The translations under genes were made by a program, and so were the position numbers. Shown piece after piece: positions 32,636 through 46,517 of a stretch of 64,000 bases of DNA (positions within the stretch are counted from its first letter, which is position 1; each line of letters begins with the position of its first letter). Below the pieces are notes generated by a model. That model had not been told where the DNA came from. It did not search any database and saw nothing but the letters and a program-made list of their open reading frames with translations. Source of the stretch: Armatimonadota bacterium (GTDB lineage: Bacteria; Armatimonadota; UBA5829; DTLH01); assembly GCA_039680575.1 (NCBI GenBank), contig JBDKSP010000023.1:35311-99310 (forward strand), in the 5' to 3' direction.

Positions 32636-33124
32636 ATGAAATCAATAATGGGCGTGATAATTATCATTGTTATTGGTGCTACTTTTGTTGGTTGTGCAAA
32701 ACAGAAAATAACTCCAGTAAAGGAACAGAAGAAAGATGAGGTGATGGTAGATCGGGATTATGTGTCTATTATAAAAAAAACAGCGGATCCTTATATCTTT
32801 AAAATAAGCATCATAAAAGTAAACAAGAAAGCCAGTACCCAAATCAGTGGTCTTCCCGCAGTAGTTGATCTGACTCTAACGGACAGCAAAGGCAAGATCT
32901 TTACTGCTGAAAAATGGCAAGATCAGAAATATGCTAAAGAAGTTGGCAATATATTTAGCACTTTAAGAAAACCTGGCTTGCAGACAGTTACAGGGAAATT
33001 ACGGCTAGTAAAGAATGATCTTCCACCTGGTAGGTATATAGTTAAGCCGCGAATCAGAATACAGGAAGTGTTTGCTTCGATAGACTACCCTGCGGGTAAC
33101 TCAGTAACGATTGAGGTCAAATAG
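32636..33124 (+). CDS. Lipoprotein with one copy of a ~130-150 aa repeated domain
   Basis: FVGC lipobox; DRDYV...PAGNSV domain. Confidence 0.65.
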   Translation: MKSIMGVIIIIVIGATFVGCAKQKITPVKEQKKDEVMVDRDYVSIIKKTADPYIFKISIIKVNKKASTQISGLPAVVDLTLTDSKGKIFTAEKWQDQKYAKEVGNIFSTLRKPGLQTVTGKLRLVKNDLPPGRYIVKPRIRIQEVFASIDYPAGNSVTIEVK

Positions 33125-33132
33125 GCAAAGTT

Positions 33133-34107
33133 ATGAGGCGACGTTCACTTGCTACTATTCTGATAGGCATTATTGTTGCGGTAGGTTTTGTAGCTTATTG
33201 GATAAGAGTGCATACCTTAGCTGCTGCTAGGAAAGACACTGTAGATCGTGACTTTGTGGCTACAATACAGAAGACCGAAGATCCTTACGAATTTGAGATA
33301 AGTATCAAAAAAACAAATAAACATGTGGACAAGAAGATAGGCGGTTTCGCTGTTGTTGCTGATCTGGCTTTAAGAGACAGCAAAGGACGAGTGTTTCCTG
33401 CTGAAGATGACGTAAACCTTAGTTATGCAGTAGAAATTGGCGAAACATTCGGCATAATCATGCCTCCCTACATGGACTCTCTTACCAGTAAGGTTCGCCT
33501 GATTCGGCGTGATCTTCCTCTGGGTGACTACATCATACAACCGCGCATTCGCATACTTGAAGACGGAAAGGACCGGCTTAGGGGTACACTCTATTGCGAT
33601 GGCGGGACTGTTGCTGTTCCTGCAGGTAACTCTGTAAAAGTAAAAGTGCAGCCACCTTGGATGGTAAAGCCGTTGGAAGACGCAAATGATGTGATTGACC
33701 CCGATTTTGCAGCTACTATAGCACCAACAAGTATGCCCAATGTTTTTTTGATTGAAGTCAAGCGCGTAAACAAGAACTCTGATAAGGCTATCAACAGCCA
33801 TCATGAAGTCTTTGTCGACTTCGATCTTGTGGACGAGAAAGGAAGACTTTATAAAGGAGACTTCCAGATAAGGACATTTGCAAAAGAAGTTAGCGATGAT
33901 TTCGCACCTAACGACGCATCACCATACCCAACCTCAAGAAAAGGTAAAGTACGGCTGATAACGACGAGTCTATCTACCGGAACTTATACGATCAAACCCA
34001 GTGTTCGGGTAGTGGAAGAAGGTAAAGATAGAGTTGAGAATCCACGGGCAGAAGCTGGCAGCGTAAAGGTTCCTGCAGCTAATTCGGTGAAGGTTACTAT
34101 TCCATAG
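33133..34107 (+). CDS. Membrane-anchored protein with two copies of the same domain
   Basis: DRDFV...PAGNSV and DPDFA...PAANSV. Confidence 0.7.
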   Translation: MRRRSLATILIGIIVAVGFVAYWIRVHTLAAARKDTVDRDFVATIQKTEDPYEFEISIKKTNKHVDKKIGGFAVVADLALRDSKGRVFPAEDDVNLSYAVEIGETFGIIMPPYMDSLTSKVRLIRRDLPLGDYIIQPRIRILEDGKDRLRGTLYCDGGTVAVPAGNSVKVKVQPPWMVKPLEDANDVIDPDFAATIAPTSMPNVFLIEVKRVNKNSDKAINSHHEVFVDFDLVDEKGRLYKGDFQIRTFAKEVSDDFAPNDASPYPTSRKGKVRLITTSLSTGTYTIKPSVRVVEEGKDRVENPRAEAGSVKVPAANSVKVTIP

Positions 34108-34285
34108 CGCATGGAAAGCCAAACCATTATCGTCTTATAGGCTCTTGTGTTGATAATGCGGCATTCTCTGATGGTATGCTTCGCAATTCCGCAGGGAATG
34201 GATAGCATGGACAGTCCCAAGTAGGCAAGAGTATCACACTGAAAACGGGATAAATATACATCTGTGATGCAAAGGGGGGTGTGGT

Positions 34286-35497
34286 TTGAGACACCATAAT
34301 ATCAACTTTATAAAGCTTATGCAGGTGTGTAGTATTATTTTACTCGTGTCAGTTCCTTGTTATAGCAACAGTACAGAACAAACACTGCCACGTGGGGTTG
34401 TTGCGTTCAGTGCTCTCGTGGATCCAAATGAATATACCGCAGACGGCGGCTGCTATGACTTGTTCCTTCAGACTACCCATGGATGTAAAGTCACACAACT
34501 GACTAACCGCATAACTACACCAAAGCTTAAATTGGGTGGTGCCATCAGAGAACCGTTATTCTCTCACGATGGAAAGCGTGTGATTTTCCTTGCAGATTAC
34601 TCGAATTCTGACGATAGACGGATGACAATGACTGGTTCGTTGCCTTATCCAAATACGTTTCTCAATGTCTGGGAGGTGCAGCTTGATACACAGAAAGTCT
34701 CGCCTGTAACAAAGGGAGACTGGGGATGGCGTATTTTCGGATGGTCACCGGATGACCATTATATTTGTGCTGTTTATCAGATAAAGCAGGGATTTCTGGA
34801 ACAGGACAAACCCATACCAAATGACATCTACGTTTGGGATATGAATATGCGAAAAGGACAAAAACTTGCTCGTGTCCCAAATGGGGTAGAATATGCCTTC
34901 TGGTCGCATGATGGAAAGAGTATCCTCTATCAGAGTTGTTACAGTGGGAATCTCTACTCGGTTCCGCGTGAAGGTGGTGAATCAAATGTACTACTTCATG
35001 GGAAAGTCGGCCGATATGGGTACAATTTCTCACCGGATGGCCGGAAAATTGCGTATGTGGATGGCGATACAATCTATATAGCTAACACAAACGGCACTAA
35101 ACCAAAGCCGATCCTCAAGATGAGTAAGAACTCCTATCCGCCAGAGTATTGCTGGTCAAGAGACAGTAAAAAACTGGCAATAGTGACAAATGAGCCGTTG
35201 GAAAACTCTCTGGATTCAACTAACTTCCGTGTCTATGATGATAACACGGGGAAGGATGGAGTCGTTGCTACATTGCATGAATCTGTCAAGAATCCAGTGT
35301 GGTCACGGGATGGACAGTGGCTCATTGTGAAGAAATGGGATGCAGGTAGCACCGAGAAACCCGATCCCAAAACCGGATGGCACATGTTCCGTCGCGAAGG
35401 ATTATTGGCGGTTTCGGTTACCGATGGCCACGTTGTTATATTAAAGGAACCGAATGAAGAGACAAAAGGATTGGATTGGGTCGAGATAGCTAATTAG
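34286..35497 (+). CDS. TolB/PD40 beta-propeller secreted protein
   Basis: Repeats FSHDGK, WSPDD, WSHDGK, FSPDGRKIAY, WSRDG. Confidence 0.8.
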   Translation: MRHHNINFIKLMQVCSIILLVSVPCYSNSTEQTLPRGVVAFSALVDPNEYTADGGCYDLFLQTTHGCKVTQLTNRITTPKLKLGGAIREPLFSHDGKRVIFLADYSNSDDRRMTMTGSLPYPNTFLNVWEVQLDTQKVSPVTKGDWGWRIFGWSPDDHYICAVYQIKQGFLEQDKPIPNDIYVWDMNMRKGQKLARVPNGVEYAFWSHDGKSILYQSCYSGNLYSVPREGGESNVLLHGKVGRYGYNFSPDGRKIAYVDGDTIYIANTNGTKPKPILKMSKNSYPPEYCWSRDSKKLAIVTNEPLENSLDSTNFRVYDDNTGKDGVVATLHESVKNPVWSRDGQWLIVKKWDAGSTEKPDPKTGWHMFRREGLLAVSVTDGHVVILKEPNEETKGLDWVEIAN

Positions 35498-35509
35498 CAC
35501 TGCATATAG

Positions 35510-35543
35510 GGCTCCCGTGGATAGAAGCGGGAGCCATTTTTTA
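35510..35543 (+). terminator. Rho-independent terminator (overlaps an att-like motif on the minus strand)
   Basis: GGCTCCCG/CGGGAGCC stem followed by ATTTTTT. Confidence 0.7.
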
Positions 35544-35775
35544 TTATAAATCTATCTTTAGTAAAACTTAGCATTCGTGCAGTGCAAGAACATAAAAGCT
35601 GGGACTTGCCGATTTAGTCAAATCCTTCTACCTTTCCTGCTTTCGTAGATGAGATATTCTGACGTTATCGTACTATTTACATATCGCTTGCTGTACGCTA
35701 AATTCCACATGTCCAACCCCAAGAATTGCTTTGGGATCGAATAATCCACTAGTTTATCAGTAGACTTCCCCACTT

Positions 35776-37377
35776 ATGAAAAACTGCTTCATTTACTGCC
35801 GTGTATCCACAGAGGAGCAAGCAGATAAAGGACACTCTCTCGATACCCAAGAAAGACTATGCCGAGATTTTGCAAAACATGGCGAATATGCAGTGAAAGA
35901 GATATTTCGAGACGAAGGAAAGAGTGCCACTAACCTGGAAAGGCCAGCTCTAAAGGAGTTGCTTTCAAGGTGTACAGAGAGCCAAATCGATGCTGTCATA
36001 GTTCAAGAGACAGATCGGTTAGCAAGAAACACTAAGGATCATCTCACCATAAAAGCAGTTCTCAAGAAGGCAGGAATCAAACTTATATCTGTTGCTCAAC
36101 CTATGCTCGATGATAGCCCCGAGGGCATGATGATTGATACGATATTAGCCAGTGTTAATCAGTTTCAGTCGGATATTAATGGGCGTAAAGCCAAAAGGGG
36201 ACTTGAAGAAAAGTTCAATATGGGATGGTGGCCTGGTTGGGCTCCAGTTGGTTATATCAATGTAACAGTAGAAGGCAATGGAGATGTCAGCAAGAGTCTT
36301 AGGATTATTAAAAAAGACCCTGATAAATGGCATCTGGTTCGAGAGGGTTTCGATCTCTATCTTACAGGTAATTATTCTGCCGATGAGGTTACTGATATCC
36401 TTAACGAAAAAGGGCTGCGCTCCAAATATGGAAGGAAAATCGCCCACAGTGTAATGGTTAATACCTTAAAGAATCCTTTTTATGCTGGAGTTATCAGCTG
36501 GAATGGCAAGAAGTGTGTAGGAAAACATGAGCCCATGATAACCCTGAAAGAACACGAACGGGTATTGCATATAATGGAATCCCATAATGTCCATGCGTGT
36601 AGAAGGCGAAAGCATAACTTTCTTTTACGCGGCTTTGCCTTCTGTAATATCTGCGGCTATCGGTACACTGCCGAAATTCATCAAGTGAAAAAGAAATCAT
36701 ACTACCACTGTGCTGCTATGAGAACACATAGTAATCTTGGACAAAATATTGAGACACTGGAACTCGAACGGGCGGTTGAGAAACAGTTTAGGAAAATTCA
36801 ATTCACTGAAGATTTTGCTCAACTGATCGTTGATAAACTGAGAACAATATATCTTGGTAAAAGGGAATCGACTACCTCTCAGAAACAGGCTCTTTACAAT
36901 CAGAAGAAAGCTATCGAAATGAGACGCGATAAAGCTGAGGAAAAGCTTTTCGATGGATTAATTTCAGATGAAGATTTCTCCAGAATTCGAGCTAAATTTA
37001 GTGCTGAGTTGGCACAGATTCAAAGCCGGATAGAAGAACTTGATGCTCAACAAGATATTGATATAGATGTTGTTCAGGAAATTCTAAGGCTTTCTCGTAA
37101 TATCTACAAAGCATATTTAAAAGCTCCTCAAGAGTTGAAACGTCAGTATCTGGCGCTATTTTGGGATAAATTTCTAATACAGGATAAGAAAATCGTTAAG
37201 GCAATTCCAACAGATCTAGTACTGGCTCTTCAGCAGGAGCAAAAAGTTATAATAAGCATTGATTGGTTCCCCAGTCCGGCACTTACTATAACTATTGAAG
37301 ACAGAAAGTATATGAAAGCCATAAGAAAAAAACTGCAAGAGATCCTCGACTATAATCTCTTGCTCAATGCTGCATAG
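35776..37377 (+). CDS. Large serine recombinase 2
   Basis: YCRVSTEEQ, ETDRLARN, CNICG...YYHC zinc ribbon, coiled coil. Confidence 0.93.
   Translation: MKNCFIYCRVSTEEQADKGHSLDTQERLCRDFAKHGEYAVKEIFRDEGKSATNLERPALKELLSRCTESQIDAVIVQETDRLARNTKDHLTIKAVLKKAGIKLISVAQPMLDDSPEGMMIDTILASVNQFQSDINGRKAKRGLEEKFNMGWWPGWAPVGYINVTVEGNGDVSKSLRIIKKDPDKWHLVREGFDLYLTGNYSADEVTDILNEKGLRSKYGRKIAHSVMVNTLKNPFYAGVISWNGKKCVGKHEPMITLKEHERVLHIMESHNVHACRRRKHNFLLRGFAFCNICGYRYTAEIHQVKKKSYYHCAAMRTHSNLGQNIETLELERAVEKQFRKIQFTEDFAQLIVDKLRTIYLGKRESTTSQKQALYNQKKAIEMRRDKAEEKLFDGLISDEDFSRIRAKFSAELAQIQSRIEELDAQQDIDIDVVQEILRLSRNIYKAYLKAPQELKRQYLALFWDKFLIQDKKIVKAIPTDLVLALQQEQKVIISIDWFPSPALTITIEDRKYMKAIRKKLQEILDYNLLLNAA
37245..37293 (+). 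other. Putative att site 1 inside the LSR2 3' end
   Basis: AGTTATAATAAG-N25-CTTACTATAACT, an 11/12 inverted repeat spanning 49 bp, with core TGGTTCCCCAGTCCG. Confidence 0.65.
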
Positions 37378-37392
37378 TGAACACTCTTCTAC

Positions 37393-37541
37393 TTATCTTT
37401 CTCCGTGCTCCGTGTTTTTAGATGCCCGTTTCTCGAGAACTTGTTGAAGAAAAAGCCTAGCGAACTGTTCAGCTGCTTGGTCTACCAAATGGTTACGTTC
37501 TTATCTGACATTTGTTTATCTTCATCGTGTTGGTTAGCCAT
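37393..37541 (-). pseudogene. Small convergent ORF, copy 1 (1-nt frameshift near 37500)
   Basis: AAGGAG-ATG; reads MANQHDEDKQMSD then LVDQAAEQFARLFLQQVLEKR in the shifted frame; paralog of 42316-42486. Confidence 0.65.
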
Positions 37542-37660
37542 GATCTCCTTATTGCTTATTGGCTAGTTCTAAATCATAGGAGATAATTTGCGTTCGTACA
37601 AGAGGTTGAAGATTGGCCACATTGGATGTACCTGTATTTGGATAAAGATGACAGGGTGTC

Positions 37661-39574
37661 TCATAATTTAGATACTTCTATTTCATCTTCCTGAAACCAA
37701 CCTTCAGTTAAAACATAGTCCTGTAGCTTTTGGGGATTCGCAGTATAGGCAACAATTGCTAAGCTGTTTATTGCACGGCTGCAAGCTACATAGAAGAGAC
37801 GGCGCGTCCTACTAATGCTTGTATCATTGCCTTCTTGTTCATTTTTTACATCTGTTTGAGTTTTTTCTTTTACACCAAACAGTTTTTCATAACTGAACAA
37901 GAAGCCTTTGGCTTCTTCGTCACTAAGAATGACCATCACGCGTGGAAATTCGAGCCCTTTAATACCCTGGTGTGTACCAAACTGGCTCGAATCAGTTATG
38001 TACGCATCATATGCTTCAATCTGACTAAAAGGGGCTTCCAAGCATTCTTTCCAAGCATCTAGTTCCGGTGTCTCGGTTGAATTGCTGGCATCGTTCTCTT
38101 CAGCAGGACTAGCGGCATCCTTATATTCAGCGGTATTTGAGAACGCCAACGGATATAAGCAATCTGGAATATCAAACAGCCTTGTTGTTGCAATGTTGCA
38201 TAAAACATCCACAAGACGAGGATCGTTATGATCTTTCCAAAGAGATAGTAATCGAGTTACAGCATTGTGAGCTTTTTCTACTTCTTTTAGTTGATTATCG
38301 GTAACTGCTGATAAAGTTTTTTTGCTTAGTAGCGGCGAAAACTTTCTTATAATCCGAGTTATTACAAATTGATCCGCTGTTTCTCTTGCTTTCTTGATTG
38401 GCAAAATCAGTTGAGTAAATAGTCTTAATCCAGGCAGAGAACCATCAAGTAATCCTGTTTTAAGTGTATCTATTTTGTAGATGGGGTCGAACATATCCAA
38501 AAATCCCATTCTACTTGCAGCCATATGGTGCTCAAGTATGAGACTCTTATAATCTGATTCGTCACCAGTCCATGCAGAATCGCCAGTGACTTTGGCCATT
38601 CTCTCTGCAGCATTTTTTTCTGCAACGGCTTTATTTGTTGATGAAGGAAAAATAAATAGACGAACGACACCGGCCTGTTTATCTGTTCTTGCTTTCTGCT
38701 CTTGGCTATCTACCTGAGATCTGATTTTATTAATCAGCTTGATTATTCGCGGAGGACAACGATGGTTCATTATCTTTGCCGGTTTTAGCCAATCTTCGGG
38801 TAAATCATGTCCAAGATCAACCTTCCCGTCAGTATATATTTGCTGCATAGTATCACCGAATAATCCTAAAGAAAATCTTTCTTTATGCGCTTCTTGCACT
38901 TCGAGAAAGGCTTCCATCAGGTTCTTGTTGGTGTCCTGACTCTCATCGATCAGAAGAATCGGGAATTTCTCAACCAATATCTTTTTCATCAAGGACTTCT
39001 CTGCAAGAAAATAAGCCCCGATAGCTATTACTTCAGCATGGCTCAGGGAGTCTTTTTCTCGATTATCACTATTTGGATTGTATCTAAAACGTTTGATATT
39101 CTCTAAATTCTGAATTCGCTTCTTTTTATTTTCAATATCCTTCTCTCGATTCATCGATGCTTGAGTTCCACTGCGTCCTTTTTGTTGCTGTATCTCTAGC
39201 TCAGCTATCTGCTTTTCAAGATTCTGCCTCAACCACTCTTTAATGTCGCTTTGAAACCCTTTTATAAGGTCCCAGGTGAAGCTATGTATAGTGGATACGA
39301 CAAATAGAGAATCGTACTCAATCCTGCGTTTAATTTCATCGCAAGCAGCGTTAGTATATGTAATAACAGCGATTTGCTTTCCTTGATATCTGAGACGGCT
39401 ACCTCTATTCTTGCGGAATTCATTAAGAACGTTAACTAATGATCGTGTTTTACCTGACCCAGCTCCTGCGAATAAAAAGAAACTTTTTGGAGAATCTAGG
39501 TCCAAGCAATTGCCTATTTCAACGTCGATATGATCATCAATATGGTTATCTTTTTCTAATGGTTCAATTGACAT
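37661..39574 (-). CDS. gajB: UvrD/SF1 helicase, Gabija GajB-like
   Basis: AGAGSGKT, TYTN, DESQD, GD..Q.IY, KGLEF, YVACSRA; overlaps the OLD nuclease stop. Confidence 0.8.
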   Translation of the reverse strand: MSIEPLEKDNHIDDHIDVEIGNCLDLDSPKSFFLFAGAGSGKTRSLVNVLNEFRKNRGSRLRYQGKQIAVITYTNAACDEIKRRIEYDSLFVVSTIHSFTWDLIKGFQSDIKEWLRQNLEKQIAELEIQQQKGRSGTQASMNREKDIENKKKRIQNLENIKRFRYNPNSDNREKDSLSHAEVIAIGAYFLAEKSLMKKILVEKFPILLIDESQDTNKNLMEAFLEVQEAHKERFSLGLFGDTMQQIYTDGKVDLGHDLPEDWLKPAKIMNHRCPPRIIKLINKIRSQVDSQEQKARTDKQAGVVRLFIFPSSTNKAVAEKNAAERMAKVTGDSAWTGDESDYKSLILEHHMAASRMGFLDMFDPIYKIDTLKTGLLDGSLPGLRLFTQLILPIKKARETADQFVITRIIRKFSPLLSKKTLSAVTDNQLKEVEKAHNAVTRLLSLWKDHNDPRLVDVLCNIATTRLFDIPDCLYPLAFSNTAEYKDAASPAEENDASNSTETPELDAWKECLEAPFSQIEAYDAYITDSSQFGTHQGIKGLEFPRVMVILSDEEAKGFLFSYEKLFGVKEKTQTDVKNEQEGNDTSISRTRRLFYVACSRAINSLAIVAYTANPQKLQDYVLTEGWFQEDEIEVSKL

Positions 39575-41882
39575 TGGCTTTCTCCACTGCAAGAACTTTG
39601 GAAGCATCTGATCCGATAGTTTGTTCGCTATCCAGTTGTTGCTCTAACCAGGAAAGACCTCCAGCGATATAAGTAGGCACCTTAAGCGCGTTAGGATCTT
39701 GCAGAAAAAGAAGTTCGAGGGCAAATTCTGCTTTCTTGGCCGTTCCTAATTCATTAAATAGTTTAGTCCCTAAGCCAGAAACAGTTGATGCATTAACAAT
39801 AGCTTGTTTGCACTTTGCTATCAGTCCTGTTCCTTCCAATTCTCTGAATGTTTCTAGATTCTCGAAGATTAAGGCATCTTCAAATGTATAAGGAAGGGCT
39901 TCCTCATTCTTATCTTTCAGCTTTATGGTTATGGGGTATTGATACGAGGCTCGGACTCGCGAATCGTTATATTCCTTTATTTTTTCTTCAGGCTTTAGAT
40001 CTAGCAAAGCGTCTATCTTCGATTTGGCAGGCACCCATTCTTTAATTGTAGAGTTTCTGGTTTCGTATTCTTTGCCTCTCTCTGGTTGAACAGCTACTCT
40101 ATTATTATTAACATCCACAGCATCTAGATCTGTGATGATAAGGGTAGTCAGCCCCAATTTCTCAATAAGCGGTCTAAGGCGATGGGCATGACTTCCACCA
40201 ATTTCTAATAATGAGATGTAGCTTTTATCGAGCTTCTGAAAATGCTGACGAATGAAATGAGGAAGAAGTATCCTTTCTGCTGGCCCTTCAACGATCATTG
40301 CTGCGTCTGCAAAGAAAAGATCACAATGTGTGGATTTGAGGTATCTAGCCGCGAATTTTAGCGTTTCATTTTCTGGACCGAAAACGTCTGACAAGTTGAC
40401 TACAGTGGAAGTTGGTACTTCAGTCCCTGCCCTAGATCGTTTCCTGCGAAAATAACGAAGACAAGAGAAATCTATCTCATGGGCAATGTGGCTAGAGTGT
40501 GTACTAACAATCAACTGTGTTGATAAACCCGCATTCTCACCTAAAGCATCGTGCTTCCGCAGAATTTCGTATGCTTTACGTATGAAAACTTGTTGGACTT
40601 GCATGTGAAGGTAGGCTTCCGGTTCCTCTATTAACACAAGGTGTAGCGGCTGTATGAGAGAATCCCTTCCTTGTTCAAAAGCTTTTTGGGCGACTTTTCC
40701 TACTTTCATCCATTCGTCACGGAATCTCATCAATCTGAAAACCATAGAAATTAAGTTTTGGTAGCCCAATCCGTTGTGTTGCTCAGGCAGCCTTAATAGG
40801 TTCTCGTTCTTGTTGGAGCCGAAATTGTTTAATTCATATTGGACAGCAGAATTATGATTAAGGCCTTCGATTGGCCTTATTTTTGTTGAAATGGTTATGC
40901 GAGGGTCTGAGAATCCAGGATATCCCAAAGATTCAAGTTCGCCTATAGCACTGCTAAAACCATCTGATAATTTCTTATCAAATGTTTGCTGAGCTTCTTC
41001 AATTGCTTTGAGTGCATCCATGTCATTCACATCTGGAAATTCCATTGGATTCAGATGTTTATCATAATAGCTCCTTAACTGTGAAGAAAGGCATCCACGC
41101 AATTTGAAAGAAGAATCAGTATTTTCATCCGAACGAATGTTACCATCGGAATCAGAAAATCCACGTTGAGCATCAATGGTATTTATTAGAATCAAGCCTT
41201 TAAATGGATCCAGGTCATCAAGTCTGTTTTCATCTATGGTCTCTTGAGGATTTGCAGCTTCACTTTTTGCTAGTTTTGATGGGTCAAGAGTGTATGCACA
41301 TAGTGCAAAGTGTTGGTTTAAGCGTTTCTCAAGAAACTCCTGCATGTTCCTGGGCCATAATCGCAAATCTGAGCAGGCTGTAGTTTCCTTTCCGGTCTTG
41401 AATGAGTCTTCGTATTCCTTAATAAGCTGATTTGTTGATTTACGACTGGCGCAATAATCTTTGAAAAGCTCTTCCATTTGTTTTGGCTCTAGTCTTAGCC
41501 GAACCCCTAGAAGACCGCCTTTCCAATCTAGTGTTGGAATTAAATGGATAACATGATGGATTTCATTATCAGCAACTTCAAGCCATATATCCATCGATGG
41601 CAGATATGGTTCCCATAGATTGAGGGATATATCTATACTATCAGTTGAAGGTTCGTCCTTTTCCCAATTTGATCCAATCTTGTTGATTTCTATCCAATTC
41701 GACAGCGTAAAATCCGTGGTGCTAAAATTGTTCTTTTTGCATAAGAATTTGTATAAGGCAGCCATAGCAGAGGTCTTTCCACTATTGTTTGCGCCGACAA
41801 ACACAGTTGTTTCATCAGCGAAGTCAATGCGGCAAGACTTTAATTTTCTGAAATTTTGTATTTCGATAAACTTTATCTTCAT
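39564..41882 (-). CDS. gajA: OLD-family ABC-ATPase/TOPRIM nuclease, Gabija GajA-like
   Basis: GANNSGKT, IEEPEAYLH, STHS, VEGPAE, TDLD; ATG 41882 after GAGG. Confidence 0.82.
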   Translation of the reverse strand: MKIKFIEIQNFRKLKSCRIDFADETTVFVGANNSGKTSAMAALYKFLCKKNNFSTTDFTLSNWIEINKIGSNWEKDEPSTDSIDISLNLWEPYLPSMDIWLEVADNEIHHVIHLIPTLDWKGGLLGVRLRLEPKQMEELFKDYCASRKSTNQLIKEYEDSFKTGKETTACSDLRLWPRNMQEFLEKRLNQHFALCAYTLDPSKLAKSEAANPQETIDENRLDDLDPFKGLILINTIDAQRGFSDSDGNIRSDENTDSSFKLRGCLSSQLRSYYDKHLNPMEFPDVNDMDALKAIEEAQQTFDKKLSDGFSSAIGELESLGYPGFSDPRITISTKIRPIEGLNHNSAVQYELNNFGSNKNENLLRLPEQHNGLGYQNLISMVFRLMRFRDEWMKVGKVAQKAFEQGRDSLIQPLHLVLIEEPEAYLHMQVQQVFIRKAYEILRKHDALGENAGLSTQLIVSTHSSHIAHEIDFSCLRYFRRKRSRAGTEVPTSTVVNLSDVFGPENETLKFAARYLKSTHCDLFFADAAMIVEGPAERILLPHFIRQHFQKLDKSYISLLEIGGSHAHRLRPLIEKLGLTTLIITDLDAVDVNNNRVAVQPERGKEYETRNSTIKEWVPAKSKIDALLDLKPEEKIKEYNDSRVRASYQYPITIKLKDKNEEALPYTFEDALIFENLETFRELEGTGLIAKCKQAIVNASTVSGLGTKLFNELGTAKKAEFALELLFLQDPNALKVPTYIAGGLSWLEQQLDSEQTIGSDASKVLAVEKANVN

Positions 41883-42147
41883 GTTAAGCACCTCGACAAT
41901 TGTAACTTTATGATAGCACCTCAGCAATTTTTGGTAAATCTTTAAGCCTGGCAGGAATTATATTGATTAACCCTACAAGAATAGAATTTCGCTAAAATTA
42001 CACTTGTTTGTGCCTACCTTTTCTGCCAATTTGCTTCTTTGAGCATATTCTCCTATTTATTGTGGTAGTATTGGCTTGGTAATCTAGGGGGCAGAATTGG
42101 TTATGGAATGTACGTAGCACTAGGTGCTGAAAAAATAAGGTCGAGTT

Positions 42148-42187
42148 AAAATAAGGAGATTAGAACTAGTTCTAGTCTCCTTATTTT
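42148..42187. repeat. 40-bp near-perfect palindrome abutting putative att site 2
   Basis: AAAATAAGGAGA-T-TAGAACTAGTTCTA-G-TCTCCTTATTTT. Confidence 0.85.
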
Positions 42188-42290
42188 GGCTCCCGAGCCC
42201 GCTGCTTAACACAACTTTTCATGACCGGATGTATATGACTGTGTAAAAGCAAGAGTAAGAAGCATAAATGCTCTGATAGCTGGGAAGTAG
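42168..42290 (+). pseudogene. Putative att site 2 plus an orphan LSR C-terminal tail
   Basis: AGTT-N41-AACT with the same spacing as site 1. Translates WLPSPLLNTTFHDRMYMT.. versus LSR2 WFPSPALTITIEDRKYMK.. Confidence 0.7.
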
Positions 42291-42315
42291 TTTCTGTTGT
42301 TTTCTGCTATTCGCA

Positions 42316-42486
42316 TCATCTTAAATACCGCGAAGAATCAGATGTGTTTTCTGATTTTTTCCTGCTCCGCATTTCCAGCACCTGCTGAAGGAAAAGTCTG
42401 GCAAATAGAATAGCAGCCTCATCAACGATATTCCCCATTTCTTTTTTCTCCTCATCTGTACCAGCTTCCAATGATGTATCAGTCAT
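42316..42486 (-). CDS. Small convergent ORF, copy 2 (56 aa)
   Basis: AAGGAG-ATG; MTDTSLEAGTDEEKKEMGNIVDEAAILFARLFLQQVLEMRSRKKSENTSDSSRYLR. Confidence 0.7.
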   Translation of the reverse strand: MTDTSLEAGTDEEKKEMGNIVDEAAILFARLFLQQVLEMRSRKKSENTSDSSRYLR

Positions 42487-42701
42487 TAAAGCTCCTTTTC
42501 CTTAATAAATAGATACATCCAGCCTACGGAATAAAGAGAACTCCCACAAGAATGGATGTATTGCCTTAACAGGCAAAGCTAGCTACGAGTTTGCCTCCTG
42601 AAGCAATATCTCCTCACTTATGCCTGTCATTCCAGTCTGCTATCTTTTGAAGCGCCATGCAAACAAGTGTTTGCGTGAGACTCAAATGGAGGCAGTGTGC
42701 A

Positions 42702-43634
42702 GTGAAACTGCAGGAACTCAGATTCGGAGTAGAGATAGAAACCGTGAAGCGCAGAAGAGGGGATGTTGCTAATGCTATCCAATCGGTTGTCGGAGGTGCA
42801 GCAACGCATGTTGGAAGATCATCTTCATTTGACCCTTGGGAAGTCCGTGATGATCAGAATCGTGTGTGGAAAGTGGTTGCTGATTCGTCTCTTTCCAACG
42901 TTGCACCGGAATTTCGCGCTGAAGTAGTAAGCCCAGTCCTAACTTATGAAGATCTGCTAGATCTTCAGGATGTGGTGAGAGCCATTCGCAGATGCGGATC
43001 AGTAGTGGATGAAAAGTGCGGGATGCACATACACGTAGATGCAAGCGCATTTGACGGAAGATCTCTTACCAACCTCGCCAAGATCATCCACAAACAAGAG
43101 GAATTAATCTTAACAGCCTTGGGTGTAAGTGCAGAAAGAATGCGTCGGTATACAAAGCCGATGAGTCCAGACTTCATAGCAAAGATTGAGAGCAGCCGTC
43201 CAAAGACAAAGGAACAGATGAACCGCATCTGGTATGGATATCAGAATAACCATCCAGAACACTATGACCAGACAAGGTATTACGGAGTGAACTTTCACAA
43301 CGTCTGGTATCGAGGAACTGTCGAGTTCAGATGGTTTGCAGCCACGTTACATGCAGGCAAAGTTAAAGCTGCTATACAGTTTGTTCTTGCCATAGCAGCC
43401 AAGGCGCTAAATAACCGTGGTGCATCAAGTAGAAGACGTCAGTTCGATCCGCAAAGCGCCAAATACGACTTCCGCTGCTTTCTTCTAAGACTTGGGATGA
43501 ATGGTGATGAATTCAAGACGGCGAGAAAGCATTTACTCTGTGCTATGCCTGGAGATGCTGCCTGGAAATATGGACGCCCAAAACAAGATGATAGAGATTT
43601 AGAGCAATCGGAGGTATGCGATGAAACGAGATAA
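42702..43634 (+). CDS. Putative amidoligase (COOH-NH2 ligase, Amidoligase_2 type)
   Basis: [31 protein letters not shown]. Confidence 0.88.
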
Positions 43635-43905
43635 GGTACAGATACCTCAAAAAGTGATGGAAGGGATCGAGGCGGTAAGGCTGTCCGGCAAGACTAATAT
43701 GCTTGATGTCCCGATGGTAATACATTTGGCGCTGGAAATGGGTTTTCCTCAAGCAGCAGTGTGGGTTTATGAATATCAAAATCTCTATGCCCAGGGAGTA
43801 TTCACTGGATTTGTTACTGCTGAAAGTGTTGAGAATTCTGAGCTTGGCAAACCAAAAGAGATTATCGACTGGGATGGAGGTGATGAGGAATGTGTGGACA
43901 GGTAG
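43621..43905 (+). CDS. DUF5049-like small protein
   Basis: [15 protein letters not shown]...ALEMGF. Confidence 0.65.
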
Positions 43906-44231
43906 GTATAATATTCGGGCAGAAGCAGCGTAATAAGAGTGAATTGGATTACTTCAAAAAGGTATTCATCTATCTATTGCTTCTCAGTGAACAAAGAGGA
44001 ACACATGCGACCGGAGTAAGTTGGTTGAAATGTGATGGTGGGTATCGTATTTTGAAGCATCCGCAACGAGCATCAGAGTTTCTTCATGGTAGGGATATTC
44101 CAGGATTTTTTAGTGGTATTGATTCGAATGTTACCTGGCTTGCCGGTCATACTCGTTGGCAGACTGTAGGCGATGCAAGAAATAACCTGAATAACCATCC
44201 GATTCTTGCCGGAAGAATTATAGGGACGCAT
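43890..44231 (+). pseudogene. Class II glutamine amidotransferase, 5' half (interrupted by RIT)
   Basis: MCG start, RG.HATG, GHTR, NNHP; breaks at IIGTH. Confidence 0.9.
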
Positions 44232-44425
44232 TATGCTGAGTCAGCGATTATGTAGAGTCGTCGGGCGGCTTGTGCTCATTCTGTGAGCTGCCGCCCGTTT
44301 TTTCTTTACATAATGATCCTGCATTTCTGCTCCCGATATCGCTTCACCTCTTGACTTCCGCACGTTTGTGAGTGATGAATTGGACCCCAATCGTAAAAGC
44401 GACTGGGTAATTCGGAGGTGATATT

Positions 44426-45181
44426 GTGTGTGGACTTGCAGGAATGGTGTTTGGAAGAATGAATCGTACGCAGGCAGATATCGAGGATGTCAAGCAGATT
44501 TTTTCTCGACTCTTAGTTCTGAGTGAGCATCGCGGGCCTCATGCCACTGGCGCTGCCTGGGTCAAGGACAACGGAATGTATCAGCTTGCGAAAGCTCCAT
44601 TATCGGCAAACTCGTTCATTAAATCGGATCGTTACAATCGATGGCACCAAGGTATTGACGATAGCACGGCGATCCTCATGGGCCACACTCGCTATCCCAC
44701 TCAGGGAAGCCATCTAAACAACTATAATAATCAACCGCTACTGTCAGCCCCCGAGCAACCTGTGTTGCTAACACACAACGGCCATATCCCCGAATCGCAA
44801 CACATACTTGAAAGCATGGGATTGCCGCGCGAGCTTGAGGTCGACAGCGAGGTGCTTCTGAGAATGGCTTGTTGCAGTCTTGGACCCGCAGGATTTTCCA
44901 TTGGTAGATTGCTCTCCAACGTGCGGGCATGTCCGGGTCAGATCGCGGCTGTGTTTGTTACTCCGGTCAATTCCGATGAGATCATCCTGGTCCGGCGAGA
45001 GCGTCCGCTCTTCCTCGCATATAATAACGAAAAGCAACTCCTTGCTTATGCCTCGGAACAGCAGATTCTTACAAGTGCAGTCTATGATAACGGCTGGCAT
45101 ATAAGCCGCATTCCGGCTTTTATGGCGGTTGTTGTGCACAGGCACCATGATCTTGCGACCACGCAGTATTCACTCACCTGA
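44426..45181 (+). CDS. Intact class II glutamine amidotransferase carried inside the RIT
   Basis: GGAGG-GTG; MCG, RGPHATG, GHTR, THNG, VDSE, YASE. Confidence 0.9.
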   Translation: MCGLAGMVFGRMNRTQADIEDVKQIFSRLLVLSEHRGPHATGAAWVKDNGMYQLAKAPLSANSFIKSDRYNRWHQGIDDSTAILMGHTRYPTQGSHLNNYNNQPLLSAPEQPVLLTHNGHIPESQHILESMGLPRELEVDSEVLLRMACCSLGPAGFSIGRLLSNVRACPGQIAAVFVTPVNSDEIILVRRERPLFLAYNNEKQLLAYASEQQILTSAVYDNGWHISRIPAFMAVVVHRHHDLATTQYSLT

Positions 45182-45257
45182 TTAATGCTCACTACAAGCC
45201 TCTTCCGATGTTTTTGTTATAAGGCGGTTCATCCGTCACATTCACGAGGAGGCTTGT

Positions 45258-46517
45258 ATGTTACCTAATGTAGATTTTGAAAATCCGCAAACGCCGTTAG
45301 AAAGCACAATAGCGTCGGCACGACATGGAATGGTGAGCAAAAAATACCCCTACCACAGTATATATGAAGCTACACGAATATGGCGTCACCTGCTGGTGTT
45401 TGCCGGGGAGCGTAGTATAGACCGGTTTTCTACCGAACTTGCTACCGATTATCTTACCTACTGCTTGGCGAACAACTCAGCCAGAGGCTGCTGCTGGAAG
45501 ACCGCGAACAGATACCTGCGCATATTGACCGAATACCATATACATGGAACATGGGAGCGCAATCCACGGCGGTCGAAAACACCATTAATAACGTCGCCTG
45601 TTCTTGCTGGCGGACTCGAGCAGTTCATACTCTATTGGAAGCACGAACGGCACGCCTCATACAACACGACCACCTACGGCAGACGCTATCTGACGGACTT
45701 TCTGCTGCTTCTCGAAAAAAGAGGTATATGCGACTGGTCGGGACTCGACGGATCCGTCTTCGAGGCGTTCTTCGCCGCCAGGACTCACATGAAACCTCGC
45801 TCAATGGACCTGATATCCTGTGTTTTGAGACTATTTGTGCGGTTTCTTTTCAGAGAAGGGATTGCGGAAAGCAACTGGGCTTCTTACATTCCAAGGTTTC
45901 GTGGCTTCAGAAACGAAAAGCTGCCGAAGACGTGGACAAGCGATGAAGTAGAGTTGCTGCTTTCAATGGTGGATCGCGCATCGCCGGTTGGAAAGCGAGA
46001 TTACGCCATTTTGCTACTTGCATGCAGGCTCGGCATGCGTCCAAGCGATATCACTTCATTAACTCTCGATAATCTTAGGTGGGACGACGCGAGAATCGAT
46101 TTCACTCAAACCAAGACTGGCAAGAAAGTCATGCTTCCACTGACAGAGGATGTTGGCGAGGCAATCATCGACTATCTGCGTAACGCAAGACCGGTCTCCG
46201 AACACAGAGAGGTGTTCCTGTATGTTTGTTCGCCATATGCACCGCTCGGCACGGAAAACAGGCTTCACGGCATCATCTCCAAATACAGGAGGAAAGCCGA
46301 GATGCCAATCGTAGAAGGCGTTTCCCAAGGCATGCGGTCGCTTCGCCACAACCTGGCTACAAGGCTGCAGCAGGCTAATGTACCTTTGGAAACCATCGCT
46401 GATATACTCGGGCACACTTCACTTGAGACCACACGCATATATGCCCGAGTCGATATTAGTGCCCTGCGTAGTGTCGCGCTGAACCCCGAGGAGGTATGTG
46501 ATGTCCACAGATGCTAA
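45258..46517 (+). CDS. Tyrosine recombinase (RitA-like)
   Basis: LGMRPSDI, SLRH, LGH, RIY. Confidence 0.9.
   Translation: MLPNVDFENPQTPLESTIASARHGMVSKKYPYHSIYEATRIWRHLLVFAGERSIDRFSTELATDYLTYCLANNSARGCCWKTANRYLRILTEYHIHGTWERNPRRSKTPLITSPVLAGGLEQFILYWKHERHASYNTTTYGRRYLTDFLLLLEKRGICDWSGLDGSVFEAFFAARTHMKPRSMDLISCVLRLFVRFLFREGIAESNWASYIPRFRGFRNEKLPKTWTSDEVELLLSMVDRASPVGKRDYAILLLACRLGMRPSDITSLTLDNLRWDDARIDFTQTKTGKKVMLPLTEDVGEAIIDYLRNARPVSEHREVFLYVCSPYAPLGTENRLHGIISKYRRKAEMPIVEGVSQGMRSLRHNLATRLQQANVPLETIADILGHTSLETTRIYARVDISALRSVALNPEEVCDVHRC

Follow-up and report, generated by a model that had tools for sequence, protein, structure and literature searches.

SCCmec and other SCC composite islands are built by large serine recombinases (LSRs; CcrAB or CcrC) that insert units at the 3′ end of a conserved gene, with recombinase-less units stacked between repeated sites. 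The same picture of unit stacking is given for SCC islands in passages of a study of Dehalococcoides (PMC3146451), whose tandem ssrA islands combine a CcrB-like integrase gene that overlaps attP with integrase-less islands between the repeats, an arrangement read there as accretion with cis-mobilisation. The integrase of these islands, DsiB (McMurdie et al. 2011), is a serine recombinase of about 540 amino acids whose gene overlaps attP or attL and the 3′ end of a tRNA-like RNA gene, and whose stop codon depends on the integration state; the target is the tmRNA gene, and a second, small recombinase, DsiA, is also present (PMC3146451, in part). Accretion of CIMEs is reviewed for elements of the ICESt1/ICESt3 type, in which an incoming element joins a decayed resident that has kept its att sites and the composite can excise as one; in the relevant section, these elements have tyrosine integrases and identical direct repeats (PMC5704250).

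Serine recombinases at tRNA genes, such as those of Mycobacterium AICEs at tRNA-Leu and phage phiRSM1 at tRNA-Ser, are called rare in the passage concerned (PMC3218068). Phage-type serine integrases use an imperfect palindromic attP of about 50 bp, with the zinc-ribbon motif lying 5 bp further inward in attB, and have a small helical partner. Integrons have the tyrosine recombinase IntI and attC sites that fold as single strands; their cassettes lack promoters, are driven by Pc and form long arrays.

Here we describe a locus in the window (the whole 64,000-nucleotide stretch of Armatimonadota DNA that was analysed) in which a Gabija operon follows an LSR gene called LSR2. The LSR2 family resembles DsiB in the overlap of the recombinase gene with its att site and with an RNA gene end, and in the state-dependent stop codon, a likeness in gene arrangement. 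Tandem joining with an integrase-less unit is likewise common to this locus and the Dehalococcoides islands, but the LSR2 family targets tRNAs, and the window composite is in an attP configuration away from any tRNA. Joining to a decayed resident is also the ICESt1/ICESt3 pattern, which here would be carried out by a serine recombinase. SCC islands differ in their target, which is rlmH rather than a tRNA, and in having the att site outside the ccr gene. LSR2 has the domain set of the LI (A118) integrase (PMC3783163, in part) and of the SPbeta integrase, which works with a 58-aa recombination directionality factor (RDF; PMC11722253, in part). The family also shares the attP form and the 5-bp inward motif of phage-type integrases, and a small helical partner, predicted for LSR2 to sit at the coiled-coil base; unlike them, it has attP inside coding sequence and a tRNA T-arm as target, and the RDF role of its small ORF is a candidate one. 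It is like the Mycobacterium AICEs and phiRSM1 in its target, a serine recombinase entering a tRNA 3′ end (PMC3218068, in part).

A palindromic site within the LSR2 gene

The recombinase end of the locus has three features.

35776..37377, plus strand: LSR2, large serine recombinase of 533 aa, full length, in attP configuration (Pfam Resolvase, Recombinase and Zn_ribbon_recom)
37245..37293, no strand: site 1, attP-type (P arm, crossover, P′ arm), a 49-bp imperfect palindrome inside the LSR2 3′ end (arm covariation, anatomy of relatives)
37264..37377, plus strand: tail 1, the last 37 codons of LSR2 (WFPSPALTITIEDRKYMK...), from the P′ arm onward (tail HMM)

LSR2 is a large serine recombinase by its resolvase catalytic, recombinase and zinc-ribbon domains (Pfam E-values 1.8e-38, 3.4e-15 and 7.4e-07). 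The TP901-1 and A118 integrases are its PDB sequence matches, and it is 55–72% identical to the best 120 of 1493 relatives. CcrB is among its nearest named families (E 9.4e-36), at 123.5 bits against an NCBIfam cut-off of 900, which rules out LSR2 as a CcrA/B/C equivalog. It is the sole member of its family in this 96.8%-complete genome.

The 49-bp inverted-repeat site that the initial annotation reported in the 3′ end of this gene is real. By itself the palindrome is a marginal fold (z −1.9; 12 of 200 shuffles fold equally well), and it is accepted because its outer arms covary across 27 relatives, not because of the fold. Specifically, own arm pairs match at 9.74 of 12 positions compared with 8.57 for cross pairs, a value reached by 0 of 5000 permutations. 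Against the LSR2 P arm, the tail-1 arm agrees at 11/12 and the tail-2 arm (below) at 9/12; both values lie within the cross-locus range of 7–12, and arm symmetry does not tell which tail is native to LSR2. The crossover falls at or just past the Trp codon at 37264-37266, and the anatomy of attL and attR in relatives suggests that LSR2 would recombine attP with attB through a 2-nt crossover.

Relatives that abut tRNA genes

A survey of relatives covered 80 metagenome loci: the recombinase is full length in 27, and in 32 its homology ends at the Trp codon that lies at the centre of the palindrome. Sixteen of these 32 abut a convergent tRNA called by ARAGORN (Asn 9, Leu 3, Gln 2, Ser 1, Ala 1), as expected of tDNA islands, and six more have a T-loop-like motif; the window copy abuts no tRNA, and no tRNA gene was found in the window. 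The missing tail is present in 10 loci as an orphan 3.6–10.9 kb upstream on the same strand, and these orphans are the ordinary left ends of complete elements. Where both ends are visible (six elements), the orphan would give a tail of 32–42 residues in 6/6, and the junctions share 4–9 letters. On the tRNA side, the arm motif fits the T-loop GGTTCGAATCC best when shifted 5 bp toward the centre (mean 5.56/12 versus 2.0–4.4 at other shifts; 16 loci), and an offset of 5 bp between attB and attP motifs is described for the LI integrase (PMC3783163, in part). Both marks of a large-serine-integrase attP are therefore present: an imperfect dyad of about 50 bp, seen as covariation, and an attB outer motif 5 bp inward, seen as the +5 shift in the 16 loci.

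Because of the truncation at the Trp codon, the abutting tRNAs and the upstream orphan tails, we read the palindrome as the family attP, tRNA 3′ ends as attB, and an orphan tail with its flank as attL. It is almost certain that LSR2 belongs to a large cross-phylum LSR family in which attP is the palindrome in the recombinase's own last ~37 codons and attB is the 3′ end of a tRNA gene, such that integration yields attR (the 5′ part fused to the tRNA) and attL (the displaced tail, usually with a small convergent gene). The truncated relatives and orphan tails thus support the earlier proposal that integration swaps the C-terminal tail of the recombinase. In integrated relatives, cargo lies antisense beside the tail and includes restriction-modification genes, Mrr, DruA with NurA/HerA, HigB and Schlafen-like genes.

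A second module beyond Gabija

Downstream of LSR2 lie the Gabija genes, the second module and the first genes beyond it.

37661..39574, minus strand: gajB, UvrD-like helicase (Pfam; PADLOC GajB E 3.1e-259)
39564..41882, minus strand: gajA, AAA_15 ATPase with OLD-like TOPRIM (Pfam; PADLOC GajA E 2.4e-292)
42143..42192, minus strand: hairpin with 25-nt arms, a terminator-like flank whose 3′ arm is the left half of site 2 (repeat search and fold)
42168..42216, no strand: site 2, junction of attL type, with a foreign flank, the crossover and the P′ arm of a sister element (homology begins right at the core)
42187..42246, plus strand: orphan tail 2 (WLPSPLLNTTFHDRMYMTV, then stop), decayed (tail HMM)
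42657..43905, plus strand: Amidoligase_2 and DUF5049 genes, the first genes of the downstream sister element (Pfam; synteny in L021)

The PADLOC matches confirm the Gabija cassette, an adjacent pair of an ATPase plus TOPRIM gene and a UvrD-like helicase gene that overlap by 11 nt; gajA starts with ATG at 41882, and a longer TTG frame reaches 41927.

The initial annotation described a diverged copy of the whole recombinase-end module 4,923 bp on. At that spacing, a 53-nt direct repeat (37263-37315 versus 42186-42238, 72% identical) forms the longest repeat family within 35500-43000, and it exceeds chance because the tail HMM built from relatives (E 6.8e-21 and 3.6e-4) and the small-ORF HMM each match both places. 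The repeat, the orphan tail and the paralogous small ORF of the second copy hold up, but its left half is a hairpin arm, and tail 2 is cut by a stop after 19 residues, as against the 32–42 residues of family tails. On the minus strand the hairpin has a folding energy of −30.2 kcal/mol (z −5.3) and a U-run after it; such a terminator flank resembles the attL flanks of three relatives (L066, L079 and L081). In five relatives from this bacterial family the flank has no counterpart, which counts against the accretion favoured below.

These features bear on whether the second module is simply the residue of a second complete LSR gene and its element after an ordinary deletion, with no site-specific event at site 2. 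Remnants of this kind do exist among relatives, where L078 retains a recognisable P arm (+5.3 on the P-arm matrix) and L047 about 15 nt of one, 11/14 identical. In the window, homology starts at the crossover, where a random endpoint is unlikely to fall, and the left arm scores −12, whereas the median of the 52 distinct real P arms is +24.6 and the lowest of them scores −3.6. Site 2 is thus not a visible remnant of a deleted LSR gene, and we regard ordinary deletion as very improbable.

A further observation on the left arm counts against the accretion of two elements that we favour below. The sequence AGTTCTAGT lies there at attP-type spacing, matches the tail-1 arm at 8/12 (a level reached by 0.3% of island 12-mers) and ranks in the top 3% on the P-arm matrix; among attL left arms at this spacing it is the highest (6 versus 2–5). 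It would fit either a P-like cassette arm, the idea first put forward, or a decayed P-arm remnant.

A candidate directionality factor

Each tail is accompanied by a small ORF.

37393..37541, minus strand: small ORF 1, RDF-like, 31 aa through a frameshift or shortening (small-ORF HMM match at 37408-37497, E 8.8e-10)
42316..42486, minus strand: small ORF 2, 56 aa, intact, candidate recombination directionality factor (small-ORF HMM E 7.9e-15; predicted complex)

The two are paralogous minus-strand genes, as initially described, but small ORF 1 is not intact: read from the ATG at 37541, it reaches a stop after 19 codons, and FARLFLQQ, the conserved part, lies in another frame (31 aa, TTG at 37488). 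Strong HMM matches occur in 15 of the 80 loci, 12 of them no more than 40 nt from the tail on the opposite strand, which bears out the earlier view of tail and small ORF as one conserved module. No Pfam, NCBIfam or PADLOC family matched the small ORF.

A predicted complex of small ORF 2 with LSR2 scored 0.79 compared with 0.00 for the best control, a mark reached by 116/157 solved complexes and 2/215 mismatched pairs. At least 78% of contacts recur between runs, the partner has a pLDDT of 67 or higher, and the predicted contacts fall on LSR2 residues 347-358, 428-461 and 481-490. This placement is similar to that of the SPbeta RDF, which binds DBD2 and the coiled-coil hinge (PMC11722253, in part), and the prediction may owe its success to likeness to that solved complex. 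The small ORF thus appears to be a conserved partner, predicted at the base of the recombinase coiled coil, and because of this predicted position we propose it as a candidate directionality factor.

A proposed joining of two related elements

Decay of the two modules is complementary: tail 1 and small ORF 2 are intact, and tail 2 and small ORF 1 are broken. In a related locus (L021), an LSR, its tail, 1.2 kb, the small ORF, an amidoligase gene (75% identical at the protein level) and DUF5049 follow one another without Gabija. Because of this synteny, the complementary decay and the status of LSR2 as sole family member in the genome, LSR2 appears to belong with the downstream element. Very likely, site 1 is of attP type and intact, site 2 marks a precise junction of attL type that belongs to a sister element (terminator flank, tail 2, small ORF 2, amidoligase, other genes), and Gabija occupies the usual cargo slot of the family, next to the P′ arm and antisense to the recombinase. 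The segment 37263-42185 carries no recombinase and is bounded by sites 1 and 2, the structure of a CIME or accreted composite.

An alternative is that a single native element in attP form comprises LSR2, tail 1, small ORF 1 and Gabija. The downstream element would then have entered a tRNA gene or pseudo-attB carried beside gajA, using a recombinase of its own that now lies past the contig end or is lost. Such nested integration is consistent with the 11/12 match of the LSR2 P arm to the tail-1 arm, as good as native pairs (mean 9.74), with Gabija in the canonical cargo slot of an LSR2–tail 1 element, with the ordinary attL anatomy of site 2 and with a contig that stops at IS21 before the downstream element's right end. 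We nevertheless consider it unlikely: the 96.8%-complete assembly holds no second LSR2-family recombinase, the P arm of a tRNA-Asn-fused LSR pseudogene on another contig (C21) is unrelated, LSR2, small ORF, amidoligase and DUF5049 are syntenic in L021, and no core genes of an LSR2–Gabija element were seen upstream of LSR2.

The initial annotation favoured a recombinase-less cassette inserted into the recombinase's own gene. On this account, 37263-42185 is a circle (replacement tail, small ORF, Gabija and hairpin arm) that LSR2-type enzymes insert in trans into the attP inside LSR2, making a reusable SCC- or integron-like capture platform. Both junctions are indeed precise at the family crossover, a P-like motif lies at attP spacing in the site 2 left arm, removal of the segment would leave the LSR2 5′ part, tail 2, small ORF 2 and amidoligase in parallel to L021, the complementary decay fits, and CcrB is among the nearest named families of LSR2, although far under its cut-off. 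However, insertion requires attP-type × attL-type pairing, which characterised serine integrases do not carry out in the account cited (PMC3783163, in part), and reversal would yield a recombinase without the conserved tail helix, tail 2 being decayed. Among the full-length relatives, a second downstream module is present in 1 of 27 (L047); its 848-bp insert (83% repeat) carries only a small ORF and an HTH gene, and together with L078 it represents the decayed tandem joints seen elsewhere. The 10 other orphan tails are ordinary left ends, and the 80 loci contain no multi-cassette array. No empty-site or circle joint between 37264 and 42186 was found in assembled contigs of four runs, which drop rare variants. 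We judge insertion in trans distinctly unlikely, and the proposed integron-like array is not borne out: no IntI, attC, Pc-driven promoterless cassettes or long array was found at the locus. Cargo gathers next to a recombinase gene at a recombination site, as in integrons, but this is not an integron because the recombinase is of serine type, Gabija has its own upstream region and the 80 loci hold no array.

We put the chance at about even that two related elements became joined side by side by site-specific accretion, trapping the Gabija operon, as a recombinase-less CIME/SCC-like unit in the usual cargo slot, between one intact site and a junction left behind. The Gabija unit, consisting of tail 1, small ORF 1, gajBA and the hairpin, would first have lain beside a tRNA in an earlier host, with no recombinase of its own. 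The LSR2 element would then have integrated into that same tRNA, creating the hairpin/tail 2 junction, and later joint excision of both through the outer attL and attR would have placed tail 1 behind the LSR2 5′ part and made tail 2 an internal scar, since decayed. The composite, its attP unused, would now sit in a larger island whose boundary belongs to a second recombinase, LSR1. Tandem accretion and co-excision reach the same end state as cassette insertion with canonical reactions alone.

The proposed earlier array is not seen because the window has no tRNA gene and the downstream element's right end runs off the contig at IS21. Synteny with a same-genus genome ends at 22489, and the island's chromosomal junction belongs to LSR1; because an attP-type site sits unused inside this LSR1-bounded island, the history needs either one more capture step or an element with two recombinases. 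We infer every recombination event at the locus from sequence, and the history as a whole (Gabija unit at a tRNA, joining by the LSR2 element, co-excision and capture in the LSR1 island) is offered tentatively, with a chance slightly below even. The arrangement looks like known mobile-element accretion, not a new integron-like system. Unlike accretion in ICESt1/ICESt3-type elements, the joint in the LSR2 family lies inside the recombinase's own gene, so that accretion would also exchange the tail of the enzyme.

LSR2 and its genomic setting

The large serine recombinase LSR2 ends in an imperfect palindrome, site 1, and its final 37 codons start at the Trp497 codon at 37264, the centre of that palindrome. 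No further LSR2-family member is present in the source assembly, a metagenome-assembled genome of 122 contigs that is 96.8% complete. Synteny with a genome of the same genus, at 92% identity, ends at 22489, and a low-GC island extends from 22,489 through the contig end.

Features of the window
1–22,489: chromosome portion with pyrimidine, histidine and release-factor genes; GC about 0.55
22222–23958, − strand: LSR1, a distant serine recombinase whose gene spans the island/chromosome junction near 22489–22537
35776–37377, + strand: LSR2, 533 aa, with resolvase, recombinase and zinc-ribbon domains
37245–37293: site 1, imperfect palindrome of 49 bp in the LSR2 3′ end
Downstream of LSR2, − strand: small ORF 1, the conserved FARLFLQQ half out of frame with its ATG
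Downstream of small ORF 1, − strand: gajB (PADLOC E 3.1e-259)
Adjoining gajB, − strand: gajA (PADLOC E 2.4e-292)
About 260 bp: upstream region of gajBA, preceding the hairpin
42143–42192: hairpin with 25-nt arms; − strand fold −30.2 kcal/mol, z −5.3, with a U-run after it
42316–42486: small ORF 2, 56 aa, intact paralogue of small ORF 1

LSR1, which shares 24% identity with LSR2, runs from the island into the chromosome, overlapping the 3′ end of an opposite-strand PHP-domain gene. Its C-terminal part contains a YLPSP motif resembling the WLPSP of the LSR2 family, and given this motif its tail may also be host-derived. The window contains no LSR1-type orphan tail, and the full 64 kb contains no tRNA gene.

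To the right of site 2, a second junction-like site past gajA, the order is amidoligase, DUF5049, glutamine amidotransferase, three tyrosine recombinases, a putative defence cluster and HTH genes, followed farther right by a coupling-protein-like ATPase and then IS21 at 61.8–63.9 kb. The tyrosine recombinase genes (419, 328 and 336 aa; 45258–48491, + strand) are arranged as a recombinase-in-trio, which has inserted into the downstream element. The cluster at 50026–55094 (+ strand) encodes HD-CE, an ORC-CDC6-like protein, a CARF6-matching protein (PADLOC, E 8.5e-76) and a C5 cytosine methylase, and is a possible defence system carried as cargo by that element.

Relatives of LSR2 point to tail exchange at tRNA genes

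Among 8,000 candidates scored, 1,493 relatives of LSR2 were found at E 1e-20. The best 120 of these show 55–72% identity and source names spanning several phyla, and most close with a conserved tail, W-x-P-S-P..I.TL.D..YM. Thirteen of the 120 end a few residues past the Trp/Leu position, several of them in peptides such as QDSNLQ or RQDSNPS, which are the opposite-strand coding of a tRNA T-arm.

The best 80 of 126 confirmed metagenome loci were fetched and scanned with a tail HMM and ARAGORN. The gene is full length, with the P and P′ halves joined, at 27 of the 80 loci, and at 32 its homology stops at HMM position 24–25, the Trp, where P meets a target-side half, B′. Another 17 lack a tail match, and matched ranges put the contig end within many of these genes. 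Half of the truncated genes (16/32) overlap a convergent tRNA 3′ end (Asn 9, Leu 3, Gln 2, Ser 1, Ala 1), and six more carry a T-loop-like motif. Orphan tails, starting at HMM position 16–33, occur at 11 of the 80 loci, and ten of the 11 lie on the same strand as the recombinase, 3.6–10.9 kb upstream of it. Where both junctions can be seen, in six elements, the orphan would restore a tail of 32–42 residues and the junctions have 4–9 letters in common. The left flanks of orphan tails are mutually unrelated, often a hairpin and T-run right after the tRNA CCA (loci L066, L079 and L081).

The outer arms of the palindrome covary across the 27 full-length loci (own pairs 9.74/12, cross pairs 8.57; 0/5,000 permutations). 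On the tRNA side, at 16 loci, the arm motif (A/G)GTTATAATAAG matches the T-loop GGTTCGAATCC at a 5-bp slide toward the centre, with a mean of 5.56/12 at this shift versus 2.0–4.4 at other shifts. The attP/attB half-site offset described for a Listeria phage integrase equals this 5-bp shift (PMC3783163). The truncated and orphan-tail loci, the covariation and the 5-bp shift, combined, indicate that the palindrome is almost certainly the attP of the LSR2 family and tRNA 3′ ends its attB, and that integration would swap the tail of the enzyme and deposit the displaced tail at the element's other end. The initial annotation had read the palindrome as an attachment site that exchanges gene 3′ ends, and arm covariation and the tRNA-fused relatives bear this out, marking it as an attP.

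The right flank past the crossover is not a tRNA in truncated relatives L012, L036, L050, L052, L053, L055, L061 and L075 (for example, CTCCCCCAACTGAA..CCGAACC). For seven loci with such flanks, neither ARAGORN nor Rfam matched the junction, and a sub-lineage therefore seems to use a target other than tRNA. LOOT RNAs (RF03000) score above gathering in L050 (2529–2641), L052 (738–850) and L061 (3045–3160), and L050 also has a group I intron. Six loci (L028, L031, L043, L045, L049 and L067) have a second resolvase-domain gene about 2.4 kb upstream on the same strand, which recalls CcrA/B or DsiA/B pairs; the one in L043 encodes 591 aa with recombinase and zinc-ribbon domains. In L012 (8001–8177, from a Patescibacteria assembly) there is only an LSR2-like C-terminal piece, 67% identical over residues 450–498, as a stranded fragment.

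Plasmid and phage collections yielded no LSR2 relative at E 1e-40, and IMG/VR yielded one. Three of 401 genomes of the phylum have a relative at E 1e-80, and the genome-contig collection has two weak LSR2-related loci.

A probable recombination junction beyond the Gabija operon

The hairpin at 42143–42192 was missed by a simple terminator scan, whose loop rule is unsuited to it, and was detected by folding. Its right arm continues directly as TGG CTC CCG AGC CCG, and from that point a 53-nt repeat is 72% identical to 37263–37315 at a spacing of 4,923. The recombinase tail encoded here (tail 2, as opposed to tail 1 at site 1) reads WLPSPLLNTTFHDRMYMTV and then stops; it is decayed, with 18 residues beyond the Trp versus 32–42 in live elements.

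The palindrome in the LSR2 3′ end, the repeat at this spacing and the paralogous small ORF downstream are all present as the initial annotation had reported. Its account of duplicated modules stands as far as the recurrence goes, but small ORF 1 is broken or shortened, and tail 2 is cut short. Likewise, the second site it described is real, but the left half belongs to the terminator-like hairpin. Being just some 70% alike, the two modules come from two different elements rather than from a recent duplication.

Site 2 might also have been what remains of a deleted second recombinase gene, an origin that the first reading had itself set against its proposal. LSR2-family homology at site 2 starts precisely at the core, like ordinary attL junctions. 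On a matrix derived from 52 distinct real P arms, the site 2 left arm scores −12.0, compared with at least −3.6 (median +24.6) for real P arms, −12 to −57 for other attL flanks, and +5.3 for L078, which retains a genuine remnant of a recombinase gene lost by deletion. Because the homology begins at the core and the left arm scores this low, site 2 is not a visible leftover of such a gene. Judged from its sequence, site 2 (42168–42216) is where recombination precisely joined a foreign, terminator-like flank to a sister element's P′ arm. The hairpin region (41930–42200) has no match in five relatives (best E 0.07), and its only match in its own genome is to itself.

In ten integrated relatives, the genes beside the orphan tails are antisense to the recombinase and mostly serve defence or conflict: HinP1I-type restriction with Vsr and C5 methylase, Mrr, DruA with NurA/HerA, HigB, Schlafen-like and LHH/SUKH genes. 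The strand of the recombinase carries replication and regulation genes (CHC2 primase-like, AAA_25 and HTH). Gabija, which adjoins tail 1, occupies the slot that such cargo takes in the integrated relatives.

A small ORF as candidate directionality factor

The small ORFs belong to a family of 56–75-aa proteins that share a single conserved amphipathic helix (..IEMAAEQLA.LLWK.WL..) and, after it, a basic end, and no family in Pfam, NCBIfam or PADLOC matched them. Strong HMM matches occur at 15 of the 80 loci, all on the strand opposite the recombinase and 12 of them no more than 40 nt from the tail; weaker matches lie upstream of the recombinase in other sub-lineages.

A predicted complex of small ORF 2 with LSR2 residues 275–533 scores 0.79 (median of three runs), against 0.00 for the best control. 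Among solved complexes 116 of 157 attain this mark, and among mismatched pairs 2 of 215, counts that apply only roughly here because custom alignments were used. Contact agreement among the runs is at least 78% and partner pLDDT at least 67. The predicted contacts join the small ORF 2 helix (residues 17–42) to LSR2 residues 347–358, 428–461 and 481–490, which are the chain segments into and out of the presumed coiled coil and the adjoining domain. The 58-aa recombination directionality factor (RDF) of SPbeta is described as binding DBD2 and the coiled-coil hinge (PMC11722253); the general binding mode is alike, that of small ORF 2 being a prediction, and because of this similarity the complex score may mirror likeness to the solved SPbeta complex. 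We give the small ORF about an even chance of being a directionality factor, on the basis of its modelled contacts.

Probable ownership of LSR2 and a proposed history of the composite

Relative L021, whose recombinase is 65% identical to LSR2, has the order recombinase, tail, 1.2 kb of small antisense ORFs, small ORF, amidoligase (75% identical as protein) and DUF5049, which is the order of the window minus the Gabija unit. HTH_3, HTH_36 and two more genes (56.3–58.6 kb in the window), as well as coupling-protein-like ATPases, recur near LSR2-like genes in L026, L028, L056, L063, L076 and L077. LSR2 with tail 1 and small ORF 2 are intact, and tail 2 and small ORF 1 are broken. We group LSR2 with the downstream element because of the L021 order, the recurring genes, its standing as sole family member in the assembly, and this pattern of intact and broken parts. 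Arm symmetry does not decide which tail is native to LSR2, because its P arm matches the tail-1 arm at 11/12 and the tail-2 arm at 9/12, both within the cross-locus spread of 7–12.

The best reading of these sequences is that the locus would be an accreted composite of serine-recombinase elements carrying a recombinase-less Gabija unit. Accretion and then co-excision is the most likely history, which we infer tentatively, at slightly less than an even chance. A recombinase-less Gabija unit (tail 1, small ORF 1, gajBA and hairpin) would have lain beside a tRNA gene. The LSR2 element would then have entered that tRNA, joining the hairpin to tail 2 at one end and the LSR2 5′ part to the tRNA at the other. 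Excision through the outer attL and attR would have produced the composite, in which LSR2 reads into tail 1 and tail 2 persists as an internal scar. This history requires attP × attB and attL × attR reactions only. L047 has a full-length recombinase gene, then 848 bp (tail, small ORF and HTH gene) and then a second tail, 83% identical over 113 nt, with about 15 nt of P arm kept; its layout identifies it as a tandem joint with internal loss within the LSR2 family.

The same end state would be reached if the Gabija segment were a recombinase-less circular cassette that brings its own replacement tail, RDF-like gene, cargo and terminator arm, this last bearing a P-like motif, and that LSR2-type enzymes place in trans at their own in-gene site or at the joint of recombinase and tRNA, each insertion donating a fresh C-terminal tail and pushing the old one downstream. 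This model appears improbable to us. It gains from the site 2 left arm, which has AGTTCTAGT at attP-type spacing, matches the tail-1 arm at 8/12 (a level met by only 0.3% of island 12-mers), ranks among the best-scoring 3% of island positions under the P-arm matrix, and is the best among attL left arms at that spacing (6 versus 2–5). However, the model requires an attP-type × attL-type pairing, which characterised serine integrases, as described in PMC3783163, do not perform; tail 2 is decayed; and the integron-like array at first envisaged has no counterpart among the 80 loci, none of which holds a cassette array. If true, the model would describe a serine-recombinase gene-capture platform, SCC-like or integron-like.

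To return to accretion and co-excision, the attP of the composite is unused and the whole lies in an island whose chromosomal joint is that of LSR1, which this history does not explain. In L063 (10001–18677), a full-length LSR2-like gene lies internally; 5 kb beyond it come a coupling-protein-like gene and a 67% identical LSR1-like gene, the latter at the island edge beside tRNA-Gly, tig and clpP. L063 thus repeats the LSR2/LSR1 pairing of the window, so two-recombinase elements may be a recurrent form. Several other full-length loci are also surrounded by ordinary chromosomal or island genes.

Related contigs and sequencing runs

In the same-genus genome G005, the tRNA-Asn locus is also occupied by a large serine recombinase, and the contig stops 1.7 kb beyond. 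Contig C21 of the source genome was rejected as the missing right end, the P arm of its frameshifted, tRNA-Asn-fused recombinase being unrelated to tail 2. This gene (L110, 294–1927) is of a second serine recombinase type, split over three frames and fused at ...NENWLP to the convergent tRNA-Asn. Contigs C65 and C76 were likewise set aside, as they hold an N-terminal recombinase remnant and a C21-type paralogue, respectively, and not LSR2-family members. In the paralogue (L002), an IS3-type transposase gene interrupts the 5′ end, and the sequence beyond NENWL differs.

Contigs from four sequencing runs with matching sequence were compared over 33000–47000: X1, probably from the wastewater source, and X2–X4, from soil in another study. 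An X1 contig spans 33000–44258 unbroken, with no joint between 37264 and 42186, a comparison in which contigs cannot reveal rare circles. The soil runs gave scattered low-depth contigs of 160–480 nt between 33785 and 44235, at roughly 87–100% identity (mostly 95% or more), which cover parts of the PD40 gene, LSR2, Gabija, small ORF 2 and the amidoligase region, none bridging site 2. These matches indicate that the composite, or else its host, also occurs outside the wastewater sample of origin.

Relation to known systems

Tandem accretion with cis-mobilisable units has been reviewed for ICEs and IMEs (PMC5704250), and matches the history proposed for the composite. In the ssrA islands of Dehalococcoides, attP and the RNA gene both overlap the gene of a CcrB-like serine integrase, islands occur in tandem, and 15 are reported without integration modules; the authors proposed that the integrase is perhaps complete only on the circle or beside an adjacent island (PMC3146451). 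This tandem, partly integrase-less arrangement also matches the proposed history. A 2014 database paper describes serine-family integrases as not known at tRNA genes (PMC4383910), and a 2011 survey calls serine-recombinase integration into tRNA genes rare, citing Mycobacterium elements at tRNA-Leu and phage phiRSM1 at tRNA-Ser (PMC3218068). In the part of the literature covered, no tRNA-targeting serine integrase with an in-gene attP was described apart from the ssrA case.

The relatives of LSR2 supply a sequence-level rule for a widespread serine integrase family, comprising an in-gene attP, a tRNA T-arm attB and tail exchange, with a candidate small directionality factor beside the attachment site. 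By this rule, the ends of defence-carrying mini-islands can be mapped exactly. It accounts for orphan ‘recombinase tails’ and for full-length recombinase genes inside islands, and the locus shows how a Gabija operon can be carried along without a recombinase of its own. Being compact, the enzymes and their sites are candidate tools for genome engineering. Exchange of the tail may serve as an inbuilt switch between integration and excision. Of chief value are the family rule, an attP arm that mimics the T-loop, the tail swap and the candidate directionality factor.
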